Below, in pieces: positions 15,906 through 56,074 of a stretch of 64,000 nucleotides of DNA. How positions within the stretch are numbered: position 1 is the stretch's first letter; every line of letters starts with the position of its first letter. The stretch covers positions 37,921 to 101,920 of the forward strand of contig JAFWLO010000011.1 of the NCBI GenBank assembly GCA_017545595.1, written 5' to 3'. Source of the DNA: Candidatus Saccharimonadota bacterium (GTDB lineage: Bacteria; Patescibacteriota; Saccharimonadia; Saccharimonadales; Saccharimonadaceae). A program made the position numbers and the translations under genes. Under the pieces are notes generated by a model. That model made no database searches, was not told where the DNA came from, and was given only the letters and a program-made list of their open reading frames with translations.

Positions 15906-15934
15906 TTGACAAACATAAGTTGTTTGACTATAAT
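15906..15934 (+). promoter_or_regulatory. Consensus sigma70 promoter with an operator-like palindrome in the spacer
   Basis: TTGACA-N17-TATAAT; CAAACA-N5-TGTTTG at 15910-15926. Confidence 0.8.
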
Positions 15935-15939
15935 GACAT

Positions 15940-16043
15940 TAGTTCATTTTGAACAAAAGCTAACTGCGAGTCAGCTTTACACATAACAAGTTGAGAGCTT
16001 ATATGTTCAAAAATCCACGGGTTTGGCTACCGGTGGTTTTTTG
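15940..16043 (+). ncRNA. Putative ~100-nt structured small RNA or attenuating leader
   Basis: TTTTGAACA/TGTTCAAAA outer stem, AAAGCT/AGCTTT inner stem, terminal CCACGG/CCGGTGG hairpin followed by T6. Confidence 0.45.
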
Positions 16044-16117
16044 GTTCTAAAAATCTCTCCGGCACCAACAGTTTCTCCACCCTCTTCGACTCAACGCTAT
16101 CTATGAATGTAGGAAGC

Positions 16118-16342
16118 AACCTCACCAGAGCCGATTCCGGTATTCTATCCGAACCGTTTGCGTTTCCTCGTAGTGGCTACTATGGCTGGAGCTCTACTGG
16201 CCTTAACGATAGGAGTTCGGTCGGCAACTACTGGTCTTCGCATAGTCACTCTACCACGTACTCTCACGGCCAGCACTTCTACTCTACGGACTTCGGCCCT
16301 CAGAATAGGTACGGCAAGGGCTACGGCTTTGCAGTCCGTTGT
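16118..16342 (+). repeat. DGR-type variable-region copy VR1 (within short ORF 16103-16432)
   Basis: Encodes ..PFAFPRSGYYGW..GNYWSS..KGYGFAVRC; aligns without gaps to three other copies, with differences at codon positions 1-2. Confidence 0.85.
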
Positions 16343-16379
16343 GTTTCTAAAAATGCAGCGGTTTTCTCCTATGGAAGAA

Positions 16380-16611: not shown

Positions 16612-17145
16612 GTGCAACCACCCAAAAGAACCATCACCAGAGCCGACTCCAGTATTCTCTCCGAACCGTTTGCACTTCTCCGTAGTGGTTACTATTACTG
16701 GTACTCTACTGGCCTTCGCAATAGGAGTTCGTACGGCGACTACTGGCTTTCACCTACTTTCTCCACCACGAGCTCTCACTACCAGAACTTCGCCTCTACA
16801 GGCTTCAATCCTCGGAATGTGAGTCTCAAGGGCTACGGCTTCGCAGTCCGGTGCGTCGCGTTTTTCTCCTCCTTTTTCAGCTCAATGCTCTCTATGAATG
16901 TAGGAAGTAACTTAACCAGAGCCGACTCCGGTGTTCTCTCCGAACCGTTTGCGTTTGTCCGTAGTGGTAATTATAACTGGCACTCTACTGGCCTTTTCAA
17001 TAGGAGCTCGCGCGGCCACCACTGGTCTTCGCACACTTTCACTACCACGTACTCTCACTACCAGCACTTCGACTCTACGAACTTCAATCCTCCGGGTGAG
17101 GGCAACAGGGGCTTTGGCTTCTCGATTCGTTGTGTCGCTCGGTAG
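16612..17145 (+). CDS. ORF made of two tandem DGR-type variable regions, VR2 (16630-16854) and VR3 (16909-17133); may be silent
   Basis: In-frame fusion of two G.YW..RCV lectin-like C-termini; GTG start, no N-terminal carrier domain. Confidence 0.6.
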   Translation: MQPPKRTITRADSSILSEPFALLRSGYYYWYSTGLRNRSSYGDYWLSPTFSTTSSHYQNFASTGFNPRNVSLKGYGFAVRCVAFFSSFFSSMLSMNVGSNLTRADSGVLSEPFAFVRSGNYNWHSTGLFNRSSRGHHWSSHTFTTTYSHYQHFDSTNFNPPGEGNRGFGFSIRCVAR

Positions 17146-51421: not shown

Positions 51422-54400
51422 ATGTTAGCAACGATTATTCACTTCATTTTAACCCCTATTGTTTGGATTCCTCTCGTCGGTCTTTTTGCATTTTTAACTT
51501 ACCAGAACTACAAACAAGCAAATCGTCTCAAAGTCCTTAATGTCGATTCCGTCCTCCTTATGCTCGAAATCCCCCGAACAAACGACAAGAAAGAACTAGC
51601 TGCCGAACAACTCTTCGCCTCTCTTCACGGCATTCTCCGCGACAAAAACGAACTCAGAAATTCCGGAGGCGTCCAAGAACACCTTTCTTTCGAAATTGTC
51701 TCGACCGGCGGCCAAATCCGTTTCTATGTTTGGGTTCCTAAAATTCTTCAATCATTCGTCGAAGGCCAAATTTATTCCCAATATCCGACCGTCCAGATTT
51801 TCAAATGCGACGAAGATTACGTCGATAACCGTTCGAAACACTCTATCATCTATTCTTCTGAACTCGCCCTAACCGAAGATGACGCCCTCCCAATAAAAAC
51901 CTTCGATTCTTTTGAAGTTGACCCTCTTGCCGGGATTACCGGGACCTTAGCGAAGCTCGACAGCGACCTAAACGAAGAGCTCTGGATTCAAATCCTTGCT
52001 CGCCCAATCGCCGACGATTGGCACAAGTCCACAACCGACACCTGGATAAACCGCATAAAAACCGGTCGTTCCGGTGGCGGTTTTTTAGGCTTCGACGCAA
52101 GTTACATTTCCGAAATCTTCGCCGCCCTCTGGACTCCTCCTACGGGCGGAACTGGCGACTCCGGTAGTGGCCCGACAATCAGCGAACGCGATCAAACCCG
52201 AATCTCTAAAGCTGAAGAAAAAGCCACAAAGCTCGGTTATCAAGTCAAAATCCGCCTTGCTTACCTCGGAAACGACGAAGTTAACGCAAAACTAAATATG
52301 CAGGCCCTCGTCGGAACATTTAAACAGTTCAATTCTACAAATTTGAATGGGTTTAAAATGCTCGGAAGCACATTTTCCCCCGAAAGTCTTGACGCTTACA
52401 AGTTGAGGCAGTTTACAGACAACGGTTTTATTCTGAACATCAGCGAGCTCGCCAGCGTCTATCACCTCCCCCATACCAGCGTTGAAACTCCAAACATCGT
52501 ATGGGCCAACTCAAAAACCGCCGAACCCCCTTCTAAACTCCCCCTCATAACCGGAAACCCCGCAAACGACGAGAATATCTCTGCCTTCGGTCTCACAAAT
52601 TTCCGTGGCATAAACCATCAATTCGGCCTTCTTCGTCGCGACCGCAGTCGTCACGTCTATATTATCGGCCAAACCGGCGCCGGAAAATCCGGTCTCCTCG
52701 AACTCTTCGCGCTCTCTGATATCTTTTATAACCAAGGATATTGCATCATTGACCCTCATGGCGACTTCGCCATCAACAACTTAAAGTTCATCCCAGAGAG
52801 TCGTATTCGCGACGTAGTCTATTTTAACCCCGCCGACACCTCCCACCCTGTCGCCTTCAATCCTCTCGAGCTCTCCGACCCTGCGAGAAAGCCCAATGTT
52901 TCCTCCGAGGTTATCGGCGTCCTTAAACGTATGTTTGGTGATTCCTGGGGTCCACGCCTCGAACATATTTTAAGATACACTCTTTTAGCTCTTTTGGACC
53001 GCCCAGAAACTACCCTTCTTGACATCTCAAGAATGTTAACTGACAAGGAGTTTAGAAAAGAAACGCTAAATTATTGTAAAGATGTTACCGTTCTCCAATT
53101 CTGGAAACAAGAATTCGGAACCTGGAGCGAAAAGCAAGTTACCGAGTCTATAGCCCCAGTTCTTAACAAAGTCGGCGCCTTCACGGCGAACCCCATTATT
53201 CGCAATATTATCGGTCAGCCAAAATCTTCCTTCGACGTTAGAAAAATCATGGACGAGGGAAAAATTCTCGTCGTTAACCTTTCTAAGGGATTGATTGGCG
53301 AGGATAACGCCGGGATTCTTGGGTCGTTCCTAGTGACGAAGGTCCAACTTGCCGCCATGTCCCGCTCCGACATTCCTGACGTTCGCGACCGTCGTCCGTT
53401 TTATCTGTATGTTGACGAATTTCAGAACTTCGCGACCGATTCCTTCGCGACAATTCTCTCCGAAGCTAGAAAATATGGCCTTAACCTCACTGTTGCGAAC
53501 CAATACACCGCCCAAATGACCGATAGTGTCCGCGATGCTGTCTTCGGTAATGTCGGAACAACTATCTCTTTCCGTATTTCCGCCGACGATGCTCCCGTCC
53601 TTGTCAAACAATTCGAACCAACCTTCGACCAAAACGACCTCATCCAAATGAACAACCGCAACTTCATCATCAGCATGATTATAAACGGAGAAAAGGTCCC
53701 CGCTTTCTCCGCTACGACTCTTTCTCTTCCGACTTCCCCTCACGACAATCTCGAAAAAATCATAGAAAGTAGCCGAGAACAATATTCCCGCCCTCGAAGC
53801 GAAGTCGAGGAGGAAATTCGCGAAACTATCGAAGCTAGCGAAAAATACAAAAAAGAACTCTCCGATTCCGGTCGGCTCGCTCAAGACGATTCAGGTGATA
53901 AAAAATCCGAACCGAAGTTCGTTTTTAAGTCCGCCGACATTTCCTCCTCAAAATCCTACCGTCCCGAAGTAACCCGAACAAAAACCGAACGAAAGTCCTC
54001 GTCGCGCCCACTCACTCCTCAAGAAGAGTTCAAAAGACTCAAAATCTCTCCGAGTGTTGCCGAAGAAAAAGCTCCTAAACTCGGCCTAAAAGACCTAGGA
54101 AAGCTTCTAGAAGAGAAAAAATCCGAAGAAAAGGTAGGGAACGACAAGAGGGAAGAACAACCCTCTAAAAAGTCCAAACGAGCCCATAAAAAGGCTCATG
54201 TAACCCCCGAATCGTCCAAAGCGCCCAAACACCAAGCTCAAGCGGAAAATCGCTCAGAAGCCCCAAATTTTGCGCCAGAACGCAATATTTCTCATCCAAA
54301 CCCCGCGAAAGTCGCCACTCCAAAGATTACAACCTTCCATTCTGCCTCTAAAAAATCCAGTAATTCCCCAGAAAACCCGAATTCTATCGCTAAACCTTCC

Positions 54401-54484
54401 AAAAACAACGATTCCCTGAAAAAACCCAAAACCCCCAACGCCCCCAACACCTCGACCGAAGGTTATATTGTCATAAATCACTAG
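51422..54484 (+). CDS. HerA/FtsK-superfamily ATPase (type IV coupling protein/TraD-like, DUF87) with an N-terminal TM
   Basis: Walker A GQTGAGKS, IDPHGD, Walker B LYVDEFQNF, SEARKYG, ANQY; disordered basic C-terminus. Confidence 0.85.
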   Translation: MLATIIHFILTPIVWIPLVGLFAFLTYQNYKQANRLKVLNVDSVLLMLEIPRTNDKKELAAEQLFASLHGILRDKNELRNSGGVQEHLSFEIVSTGGQIRFYVWVPKILQSFVEGQIYSQYPTVQIFKCDEDYVDNRSKHSIIYSSELALTEDDALPIKTFDSFEVDPLAGITGTLAKLDSDLNEELWIQILARPIADDWHKSTTDTWINRIKTGRSGGGFLGFDASYISEIFAALWTPPTGGTGDSGSGPTISERDQTRISKAEEKATKLGYQVKIRLAYLGNDEVNAKLNMQALVGTFKQFNSTNLNGFKMLGSTFSPESLDAYKLRQFTDNGFILNISELASVYHLPHTSVETPNIVWANSKTAEPPSKLPLITGNPANDENISAFGLTNFRGINHQFGLLRRDRSRHVYIIGQTGAGKSGLLELFALSDIFYNQGYCIIDPHGDFAINNLKFIPESRIRDVVYFNPADTSHPVAFNPLELSDPARKPNVSSEVIGVLKRMFGDSWGPRLEHILRYTLLALLDRPETTLLDISRMLTDKEFRKETLNYCKDVTVLQFWKQEFGTWSEKQVTESIAPVLNKVGAFTANPIIRNIIGQPKSSFDVRKIMDEGKILVVNLSKGLIGEDNAGILGSFLVTKVQLAAMSRSDIPDVRDRRPFYLYVDEFQNFATDSFATILSEARKYGLNLTVANQYTAQMTDSVRDAVFGNVGTTISFRISADDAPVLVKQFEPTFDQNDLIQMNNRNFIISMIINGEKVPAFSATTLSLPTSPHDNLEKIIESSREQYSRPRSEVEEEIRETIEASEKYKKELSDSGRLAQDDSGDKKSEPKFVFKSADISSSKSYRPEVTRTKTERKSSSRPLTPQEEFKRLKISPSVAEEKAPKLGLKDLGKLLEEKKSEEKVGNDKREEQPSKKSKRAHKKAHVTPESSKAPKHQAQAENRSEAPNFAPERNISHPNPAKVATPKITTFHSASKKSSNSPENPNSIAKPSKNNDSLKKPKTPNAPNTSTEGYIVINH

Positions 54485-54565: not shown

Positions 54566-54694
54566 ATGCCCATATCTTATAAATCCGGTTCCGAGCTTAT
54601 AAAAACCTCAATAGATAATCTCTCTGAAAAACTCGACCGTCAAAACGACCTCCTAGAAAAGCTCATAAAAGCCGTCGCAAAAGATAAAAAATAA
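54566..54694 (+). CDS. Putative 42-aa coiled-coil small protein (below the ORF track cutoff)
   Basis: SD AAGGAG, MPISYKSGSELIKTSIDNLSEKLDRQNDLLEKLIKAVAKDKK; upstream TTGACC..TAAAAT. Confidence 0.55.
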   Translation: MPISYKSGSELIKTSIDNLSEKLDRQNDLLEKLIKAVAKDKK

Positions 54695-54967
54695 CTTATA
54701 AAGACTACCGGATAAAAATCCAAAGATCCTCATAGAATCAGAAACAAACAACGTTTGAAGTCCCATCATTTTGGTCGCTTTCCGACGATTCTCCCATCCA
54801 CATTTTCCGACAGTTTTAATGTCGCACAATAACTATTTTGAGACATTAACCCTAGTATAAAAAGCCGATACCACAATCATCTAAAACCTCGCTAAAAAGC
54901 CAACACAAGCATAATATCGTCCTAGCCCCCCCCACTGTCTTTAGCCTAATCCAAATACTATAAAGCC

Positions 54968-55192
54968 ACAACGGACTGCGAAGCCGTAGCCCTTGCCGTC
55001 CCCACCCTGAGGAACGAAGTCCGTAGAGTAGAAGTACTTGAGGTGAGAGTACGTGGTAGCGTAAGTATGCGAAGACCAGTAGTAGCCGCGCGAACCTCTA
55101 GTGCCAAGGCCAGTAGAGTGCCAGATATAGAGGCCACTACGAGGAAACGCAAACGGTTCGGATAGAATACTGGAATCGGCTCTGGTTAAGTT
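54968..55192 (-). repeat. DGR-type variable-region copy VR4: start-less orphan cassette
   Basis: Reverse complement reads NLTRADSSILSEPFAFPRSGLYIW..GYYWSS..KGYGFAVRC; in-frame TAG 7 codons upstream, no start codon. Confidence 0.85.
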
Positions 55193-55522
55193 GCTAACAG
55201 CCCTCCTCGACCTCTATAGCCCCTTTCAAAATCCTTCAAATCCGAACACCTCCCGAACATCCTCCGTGAAATCCGCAAATTTCACAAATTTTCACGGATT
55301 TTGCCCAAAAATCCAAATTTTTCACATTTCCCTGTTTTTTTGCACTTTTTTGCCTTTTTCTTCCTCATCTCCCCCTCCTTCGAGTATTCTAGAAAAATCT
55401 TCATTTTTTTCAAAAGAACAAAAACCGAACACCATAGGGAATCACCCGAAAAATCTCCAAAATCCACTTTTTTCACGCTAATTATCCCCGATTTCACGCA
55501 TTGTTTCCCTCTTCTGAGACCC

Positions 55523-56074
55523 CTACTTCCAAAACGCCTTTCTTTCTACCCTAACATCGATATACTCAAACTCCGTAATTCCCTGTCCTTCGAGGTATTT
55601 TATCATTTTCACCCCATCTTCCGCGCTCACCGCCGGATTTCTATCAACATGTACCTTAATCAACCCAGAAACCCCCTCAATTTCCACGTCTATCTCCCTA
55701 ATCTTATCAACCGGTATTCTCGCTCGAACGACCTTATATCCAAGTTGCGCAAACTCTTCCTCGAGATTCGCAATATACTCCTTCATCCTCGAACTAATTT
55801 GGGTCGTAGTCTGCCCAGTTCGTTCATCGATCACCTCCACACTAGGTTCTTTTTGAACAACAAAAACTTCCTCCCTATTAGAAAGCCACTTAATCCACTC
55901 TCGAATCGCTTTAACCGAAAGTCCCAAAAGACTAGCCCCGATCAGGACCACCACAACAACCGACGCAATCTTCTTATTCCGATAAAGTTTTCTGACTCTT
56001 TCCCTTTCCGAATCGCTCTCCGGTCTTCCCCTTTCCCTGACTATCGTTTTACCTGCCTGAACCATTCTGCCCAT
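55523..56074 (-). CDS. FtsQ/DivIB-like division protein (degenerate)
   Basis: One TM, C-terminal EYIDVRVERKAFWK, last gene of the dcw cluster. Confidence 0.6.
   Translation of the reverse strand: MGRMVQAGKTIVRERGRPESDSERERVRKLYRNKKIASVVVVVLIGASLLGLSVKAIREWIKWLSNREEVFVVQKEPSVEVIDERTGQTTTQISSRMKEYIANLEEEFAQLGYKVVRARIPVDKIREIDVEIEGVSGLIKVHVDRNPAVSAEDGVKMIKYLEGQGITEFEYIDVRVERKAFWK

Follow-up and report, generated by a model that had tools for sequence, protein, structure and literature searches.

Diversity-generating retroelements (DGRs) are usually described as one reverse transcriptase (RT), one template repeat (TR) and one to a few full-length target genes. Here we describe VR4, a start-less copy of a DGR variable region (VR) that lies in the spacer downstream of the cell-division gene ftsQ, within a 64,000-nt stretch of a Candidatus Saccharimonadota genome (hereafter the window). 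The window corresponds to C8:37921-101920 in an assembly of 744,770 bp and 15 contigs that is 98.8% complete, and positions given without a contig are those of the window. With moderate confidence we read VR4 as an inactive fossil, i.e. a 5'-truncated copy, made at the DNA level, of the end of a DGR target gene (its last ~81 codons); the target family is, as predicted from its sequence, a surface lectin with a Fib_succ_major/C-type-lectin-like C-terminus. The genus-wide pattern to which VR4 belongs, dozens of detached VR cassettes per 0.7-Mb genome, is more interesting than VR4 alone.

When positions 54700-55520 were searched against the window using BLASTN, VR4 was found to align without gaps over 229 nt with the cassette at 16115-16343 (c1, also called VR1; 86.0% identity, E = 3e-74), and with those at 16906-17134 (c3; 80.8%) and 16636-16853 (c2; 78.0%). 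The 229 nt of VR4 comprise 76 codons (SNLTRADSS...GFAVRC); the first 39 nt are target-gene sequence from before the TR span, and the rest is the full variable region. VR1 and VR4 differ at 32 nucleotides spread over 22 codons, in 17 of which the change falls at position 1 or 2 and the third base stays C or T; this agrees with the first-pass annotation, made from the sequence of the stretch, which had described a framework common to both with about 20 mostly NNC/NNT codons differing. It had also described a start-less cassette whose homology begins abruptly seven codons after an in-frame stop, and we likewise find that the homology starts at AGC AAC (55195), that a TAG (55214-55216) is the seventh codon upstream in the same frame, and that the frame has no potential start codon. 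Its statement that the homology ends at the residues RC holds for VR1, where the similarity stops after CGT TGT G (54967), but not for other cassettes, with whose tails a weak likeness extends ~12 nt further, up to the original TAG stop of the family. The VR4 frame itself continues past the homology to a TAA at 54941-54943. With a TAG upstream and a start-less frame, VR4 does not form the 3' end of a translatable target gene.

The TR of this system lies on another contig (C2:67070-66883, minus strand) and encodes Asn at all of its variable codons (GNYNWNSTGLNNRSSNGNYW...). VR4 differs from it, within the TR span, at 25 adenines and at 5 other positions, i.e. essentially at TR adenines, and therefore is a genuine diversified VR. 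Furthermore, 24 of the 35 variable adenine sites are mutated in VR4, and 16 of the 17 framework adenines within the TR span are not, which suggests that VR4 has passed a protein-level filter and is not raw cDNA. Its adenine-site haplotype is unique, showing at most 54% identity to any copy (family mean 35% +/- 9%), and no haplotype block is shared with any other copy. Judged by its mismatches, VR4 is a genuine adenine-mutagenesis product from the TR family with a haplotype of its own. Two of the five non-adenine mismatches are states common in older cassettes, namely C at alignment column 228 (22 copies) and T at column 243 (30 copies), the remaining three being rare or private. The G of the present TR at column 228 is shared by the four youngest VRs, against C in VR4, while at column 243 the TR-like C is found among these four only in C5:762 (copies are named by contig and position). 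The allele carried by VR4 is older than that of the present TR.

In its first 39 nt (SNLTRADSSILSE), VR4 is homologous to target genes but has no counterpart in the TR, whose own upstream sequence is unrelated; in relatives, too, the TR starts only 9-17 codons into the cassette. Since TR cDNA cannot supply this stretch, VR4 is unlikely to be TR cDNA, and it is also unlikely to be an error-prone copy of a target mRNA, because the adenines of the 39-nt stretch, which are invariant over 35 copies, would then have been mutated. The first-pass annotation had considered the ectopic integration of mutagenised cDNA. Such an insertion should be confined to the TR span with all adenines open to mutation, which is not what we find in VR4, and this proposal is not supported.

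At its 3' end, VR4 lacks an intact initiation of mutagenic homing (IMH) element, and the homing element is degenerate to judge from the following comparison. Active VRs carry CGTTGTGTCGCTCGGTAGGCAGC...TCTGTCCCCCTCCCCCAG, and VR4 carries CGTTGTGGCTTTATAGTATTTGG; its tail reads CGTTGTG GCTTTATAG and then passes into unrelated sequence. The putative vestige of the element (Table 1) has its counterpart in GTGTCGCTCGGTAG of the young VRs and in GCGTGGCTCGCTAG of the TR, and a 2-nt deletion in VR4 shifts the old TAG stop of the family out of frame.

A DGR-clade RT is encoded in this genome on the strand of VR4, at a distance of 13.4 kb from it and 4.6 kb past the end of the window, and is 50-59% identical to relatives' RTs that adjoin TRs. 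A 272-aa accessory gene, conserved in relatives, lies upstream of the RT gene, and the two are at C8:106492-108352, in the locus C8:106492-108431 (L053:5493-7432). In relatives the TR stands 250-400 nt downstream of the RT gene in convergent orientation; here no TR is found beside the RT gene on C8, and RT and TR are split between contigs C8 and C2. No homologue of Avd (PF05635) was found in the genome. Of the 53 adenines of the TR, 23 are altered in the youngest VR, C5:762, as against 0 of 148 non-adenine positions, and because its differences are at adenines only, the DGR has been active recently. The copies C2:68377, C2:53200 and C2:44132 have three non-adenine differences each including the tail, one or two of them within the TR span. 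The VR beside the TR (C2:66883-68390 for the two together) sits in an 83-aa open frame with an MNVG start that is cut at position -55 (fragment 5' ends are numbered relative to the first base of VR4) and is not a full gene. The tails of the TR and the neighbouring VR share TCTGTCCCCCTCCCCCAG, and C5:762 has a TR-type tail, as if one homing event had passed beyond the IMH. An Rfam search of the spacer between this VR and the TR returned sub-threshold noise only. A genome search with PF00078 had recovered only a gene on C9 and missed the DGR RT. The C9 gene, the only other RT gene of the genome, was considered as the DGR RT and rejected, being a type VI retron RT with a helix-turn-helix (HTH) partner according to PADLOC; this retron (RT_VI plus HTH_VI, C9:14451-18086) adjoins a Dam-like orphan methyltransferase, and a PDB sequence search with its RT gave no meaningful match.

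Scanning of the whole genome with an nhmmer profile built from the four window copies revealed 53 cassettes (56 using a protein profile), about 22 of which have no in-frame start codon, like VR4. The genome-wide count of VR-only inserts that the first-pass annotation had called for places VR4 in a large family, which takes up ~1.6% of the genomic DNA. The cassettes are located in a 10-kb array on C7, in arrays on C2 and C15, in the three-copy array of the window, and as singles including VR4; several stand at contig ends and break the assembly there. The C7 array (C7:16800-26800) holds ~24 cassettes on both strands, largely as head-to-head pairs in which a young start-less copy faces an old diverged one with an MNVG start. 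In such array pairs, the +9 end of the young copy abuts the -40 block of the diverged copy. The 5' ends of the fragments fall at -180, -154, -58 and -55 (singles), at -42 (~15 copies), at -24 and -2, at 0 (VR4), at +1 to +6, and at +8/+9 (~25 copies). At their 5' edge, class-A cassettes have a 40-nt block (TCTCCAACCTCTTCGACTCAACGCTTTCTATGAATGTAGGAAG) that is 85-96% conserved as DNA, compared with ~50% identity in the cassette body, and that may serve as a recombination arm or an expression signal. VR4 lacks the block, starting exactly where it ends on the 3' side. A 25-nt core of the block (CTCAACGCTTTCTATGAATGTAGGA) occurs at 19 sites in the genome, e.g. at 16090-16114 and 16881-16905 of the window and in the C7 array.

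In the window, c1 and c3 match positions 124-186 of the 187 in the Fib_succ_major profile (PF09603/TIGR02145), with the motif G..YWSS...GFSVRC, at 18.7 and 23.7 bits respectively, below the gathering cut-off of 33.9; VR4 has no Pfam match at E <= 0.01 and hence none to Fib_succ_major. The cassettes correspond to the last third only of this lectin-like domain, a full copy of which is found above the gathering score in a 1031-aa protein on C14. The likely full-length DGR target is a secreted protein of at least 935 aa on C4 (L051:1-2805, minus strand), which has an internal Fib_succ_major-like region. The contig ends within its gene at cassette position -52, with the VR of the gene itself unassembled; the last 129 nt of the assembled part match the upstream part of the C5 copy at every base. 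A 948-aa open reading frame (ORF) beside the C7 array had been considered as the target gene as well, and was rejected as coding for a PBP1-like protein. A PDB sequence search with the C5 lectin fragment gave no meaningful match, and a single-sequence AlphaFold model of this 138-aa fragment was unusable (pLDDT 32). As to the other window copies, c3 has 16 non-adenine mismatches to the TR, and directly upstream of c1 (15906-16045) there is a perfect TTGACA-17-TATAAT promoter with a predicted ~100-nt transcript ending in a terminator-like hairpin.

The gene order murG-ftsQ, followed by a convergent gene similar to that of a type IV secretion system (T4SS) coupling protein, is conserved throughout the genus. 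The closest relatives, G008 and G019 (FtsQ 64-67% identical), show the same synteny and a spacer without cassette, which aligns with the present spacer at two short islands only; the distance between the islands is 596 nt here versus 494 and 534 nt in these two genomes. At the syntenic site of G005, a 679-aa gene with two Fib_succ_major domains lies on the ftsQ strand (L174:1104-3143), and its C-terminus is 33% identical to VR4 (E = 0.002). A 587-aa gene whose product ends in ...GISVRCV is located beside ftsQ on the opposite strand in G023 (L182:1114-2877), while G013 has a DUF4143 ATPase directly downstream of ftsQ, and G004, G014 and G016 encode secreted proteins at this site. The spacer downstream of ftsQ is a genus-wide hot spot for accessory surface-protein genes, full-length lectins included. 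The cassettes are also widespread in the genus: 89 of 100 other genomes contain profile matches, several of them 20-54, and a dedicated search of G078 returned 80, almost all in frames of 79-190 aa, with their own framework and variable positions of the NNC type. No description of such cassette swarms in Saccharibacteria was found in the literature searched.

Selection on the cassettes was tested at non-adenine sites, the copies being non-independent paralogues. Counting all changes, 35 well-preserved copies show 194 synonymous and 184-186 non-synonymous changes, and 1-2 stops where ~18 would be expected. The private changes of the 35 young copies comprise 24 synonymous and 51 non-synonymous changes and one stop, i.e. 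a synonymous fraction of 0.32, compared with 0.30-0.36 under neutrality. As this matches the neutral expectation, the young copies seem to drift neutrally, and the synonymous excess would be inherited. The depletion of stops in young cassettes was dropped as evidence of selection, since it vanishes on private changes (1 versus 3.6 expected). On the other hand, 13 old diverged copies with open frames, mostly with MNVG starts, have a proportion of synonymous differences (pS) of 0.5-0.9 and of non-synonymous differences (pN) of 0.12-0.37 at framework codons.

If VR4 is a fossil, its history might have been as follows. A VR would have been diversified and selected within an expressed target, or copied from one; the fragment reaching from just past the conserved 40-nt block to the stop codon would then have moved into the spacer downstream of ftsQ by illegitimate or homology-facilitated recombination. 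Since then it would have drifted neutrally, probably being transcribed at the end of the division operon, yet neither translated nor re-homed, as one product of a high-turnover birth-and-death process of which 53 copies are left in the genome. Several points weigh against this account. Old truncated copies appear to be under purifying selection, with a ratio of non-synonymous to synonymous rates (dN/dS) of 0.12-0.28, and a streamlined 0.74-Mb genome and several sister species retain dozens of copies, which together argue that at least some cassettes are functional. In addition, the young copy C2:44132, with 2 non-adenine mismatches, shares just 10 nt past CGTTG with active VRs, of which VR4 retains 7, so a shorter homing signal than assumed may be enough, and the cessation of diversification at VR4 is inferred from sequence, not observed. 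Nor was a target-site duplication or an adjacent recombinase found that would explain the route into the ftsQ spacer.

An alternative proposal is that VR4 belongs to a silent store of promoter-less, 5'-truncated VRs that are recombined into an expressed lectin gene via conserved arms, so that DGR mutagenesis would be joined to a cassette exchange like that of pilS or of Rhs and contact-dependent inhibition (CDI) orphans. We regard this as unlikely, though deserving more credit than the other alternatives. In Neisseria pilS/pilE and in the Rhs/CDI orphan modules, the variable C-terminal part of a surface protein exists in promoter-less copies truncated at the 5' end, arranged in arrays or scattered singly, which share short conserved segments with the expressed gene. 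Here too, 5'-truncated, promoter-less copies with arms common to the full-length gene are found in tandem, in inverted head-to-head arrays and as dispersed singles, with a hypervariable core between the arms; those of VR4 are a conserved 5' segment of 66 nt and a 3' segment of ~35 nt, and the same upstream sequence is present on the C4 gene. The 40-nt block, well conserved and repeated in the genome, the open frames and low dN/dS of the old truncated copies, the framework adenines retained by start-less copies, as snapshots of an expressed VR should retain them, and the 20-80 cassettes per sister species all accord with such a store. Besides two duplicate pairs, one pair of cassettes shares a 7-site block where 0.10 pairs are expected, linking the youngest VR, C5:762, with the older start-less C11:650; the VR of the expression site is unassembled. 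VR4, however, has neither the 40-nt block nor a shared haplotype block, the private substitutions of young start-less copies are neutral, no direct transfer from donor to expression site was seen, and the apparent selection on old copies may reflect survivorship bias. Nor does a recombinase gene adjoin the arrays, as a shufflon would have it, although the search filter had missed the DGR RT and a miss here is possible; the only tyrosine recombinase is at C2:25.5 kb, and serine recombinases are at C15:37 kb, C5:42-43 kb and C9:20 kb, none of them near the arrays. Taken together, the cassette features are compatible with a silent-donor system, in which VR4, while a possible dispersed donor, has the weakest claim to membership.

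It is quite improbable, in our view, that VR4 is what remains in place of a full-length lectin gene downstream of ftsQ, after a deletion that spared its last 81 codons only. The G005 gene stands at exactly this position on the ftsQ strand with a C-terminus that aligns with VR4, the G023 gene also lies beside ftsQ, and the distance between the islands exceeds that in G008 and G019 by just 60-100 nt, so VR4 is not a clean 229-nt addition. But the cassette has diverged by only ~2% at non-adenine sites, which would make the gene a recent one whose 5' part should still be obvious, and in the 327 nt between VR4 and ftsQ no likeness to an upstream lectin gene was detected by Smith-Waterman alignment or by tblastn of 55196-55522; the 120 nt upstream of VR4 aligned with the 180 nt upstream of the C5 copy at a Smith-Waterman score of 14 (shuffle mean 16). 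Moreover, at least 22 other cassettes are cut within 10 nt of the point at which VR4 is cut, suggesting a common fragment-generating route. The first-pass annotation had preferred a VR-only insert in non-coding DNA to the decay of a whole gene, and had named a full-length lectin gene at this site in relatives, with 5' remnants at 55200-55520, as what would overturn it. The missing remnants bear out its preference; full-length genes do exist in the distant G005 and G023, but the closest relatives, G008 and G019, have none. Least probable is an ectopic retro-insertion of mutagenised cDNA, or a non-coding DGR target that is still active. The adenine-specificity of 25 of the 30 differences, the RT gene nearby on the same strand, the recent activity of the DGR and the retained CGTTGTG, a part of the young-VR motif, would all suit it, but it does not account for the 39-nt extension outside the TR with its unmutated adenines, for the 16 of 17 framework adenines kept or for the loss of the IMH tail, and fresh homing would have erased the old C at column 228 together with the three rare non-adenine changes. 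We keep to the reading of VR4 as most likely a truncated, inactive copy.

Detached or degraded targets have been noted in other DGRs. Treponema denticola has 'suspicious' truncated targets of 58-136 aa (PMC4891356), Trichodesmium erythraeum has 12 VRs, some of which are no longer homed (PMC4143802), and non-adjacent DGR targets were recorded in the survey of Wu et al. (PMC5758913). The high target numbers in the literature searched are 7 (Treponema) and 12 (Trichodesmium), with at most one truncated 'suspicious' target per genome, and DGRs of the candidate phyla radiation tend to have single targets. As in Treponema and Trichodesmium, one TR and one RT here serve several VRs in trans, the VR lies at a C-type-lectin-like C-terminus, and some VRs are truncated or combine non-adenine changes with a damaged 3' element and are judged to be targets no longer. 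Unlike in those systems, there are 53 copies in 0.74 Mb, mostly bare 3' fragments in tandem and head-to-head arrays, and the TR is on a different contig than the RT. In contrast to pilS and the Rhs/CDI orphans, the variability arises from adenine mutagenesis by a retroelement and not from accumulated point mutations, VR4 lacks the most conserved 5' block, and no sign of a transfer into an expression site was seen.

Two explanations of the genus-wide pattern would matter beyond this locus. DGR targets might shed 3' fragments faster than the deletion bias of a streamlined genome removes them, which, if true, would be a new kind of DGR-associated genome dynamics providing ready VR modules for new targets. 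Alternatively, the fragments might be a functional reservoir. In the boldest form of the latter, to which we assign a low probability, Saccharibacteria of the Ca. Nanosyncoccus type would couple a DGR to a genomic archive of start-less cassettes returned by recombination via the conserved arms, the 40-nt block among them. VR variants proven in the adhesin would be copied out and kept open by selection (53 here and 80 in a sister species), VR4 being one stored or recently retired variant, and a 0.7-Mb episymbiont would gain both a generator and a memory of host-binding specificities. For genome annotation, intergenic VR-like matches in Saccharibacteria should not be called genes or active targets before their start codon, 3' homing element and non-adenine divergence have been checked.

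Table 1. Features of the VR4 locus, the other window cassettes and the DGR RT (window positions unless a contig is named)
Feature	Position	Strand	Basis or remark
VR4 cassette	54967..55195	minus	BLASTN; nhmmer score 255.9; TR-adenine mismatches
Stop-to-stop open frame around VR4	54941..55216	minus	90 sense codons, no ATG/GTG/TTG
Degenerate IMH vestige and original stop, GGCTTTATAG	54958..54967	minus	aligns with C15:6819 tail, p = 0.027
G8 tract (C8 on plus strand) downstream of VR4	54926..54933	minus	sequence
Hairpin between ftsQ and VR4, 9-bp arms	55263..55298	minus	minus-strand RNA, dG -18.9 kcal/mol, z = -4.0
Promoter-like site TTGAAA-16-TAGAAT, 10/12 matches	55386..55413	minus	consensus match only
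FtsQ-like gene, last of ftsW-murG-ftsQ cluster	55523..56074	minus, as VR4	conserved in 22/24 genus genomes
T4SS-coupling-protein-like ATPase gene, convergent, bounds spacer	51422..54484	plus	
Cassette c1 (= VR1), class A, MNVG start, conserved -42 block	16115..16343	plus	
Cassette c2, class B (5' boundary +9), fused in frame to c3	16636..16853	plus	
Cassette c3, class A, IMH-type tail VAR*AALPLRAFF	16906..17134	plus	
DGR-type RT, 374 aa, motifs IGNLSSQ and YVDDF	C8:106492-107616	minus	tblastn with the DGR RT of relative G019

The sequences flanking VR4 on both sides are unique in the genome, and no target-site duplication or microhomology is present at its junctions, where the first-pass annotation had suggested looking for a duplication. 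The G8 tract and the hairpin lie where that annotation had placed them. The former is not homologous to the C5TC5 tract found after the active VRs and after the TR, and shuffled sequences fold locally just as well (z = -0.39). The hairpin, with the arms TCCGTGAAA (55263-55271) and TTTCACGGA (55290-55298), has no U-run after it on the minus strand. Upstream of both hairpin and VR4, and adjoining the genus-conserved island at 55416-55430, stands a promoter-like site from which transcription could run through VR4, though such chance matches are common (5 found versus 2.0 expected). An Rfam search of the ftsQ spacer returned no match, nor did scans of metagenome contigs with the FtsQ protein and with 24-mers of the flanks.

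Around the TR and the arrays, two other kinds of element recur. Seven AAA_14/DUF4143 ATPase genes were found (including C2:65242-66528, C7:22955-24226, C15:5551-6765 and C5:~1100-2400), four of which are no more than 1 kb away from the TR or from cassettes. A ~146-nt element whose fold is a single long, imperfect hairpin (-54.6 kcal/mol, z = -5.3), and that belongs to no Rfam family, is present in at least five copies (C2:67975-67825, C2:67469-67324, C2:44524-44669, C7:26846-26994 and C9:70472-70347) with partial ones on C10 and C11, most of them next to the TR/VR locus or at the edges of arrays; it could be a structural element or one resembling a miniature inverted-repeat transposable element (MITE). 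Of the two islands in the spacer between ftsQ and the coupling-protein-like gene, both conserved in many species of the genus, that at 54816-54846 is an inverted repeat, AATGTC...GACATT, and that at 55416-55430, GTTCGGTTTTTGTTC, also occurs upstream of ftsQ in relatives. The coupling-protein-like gene is followed by a 42-aa ORF (54566-54694, plus strand) with two promoter-like sites upstream.

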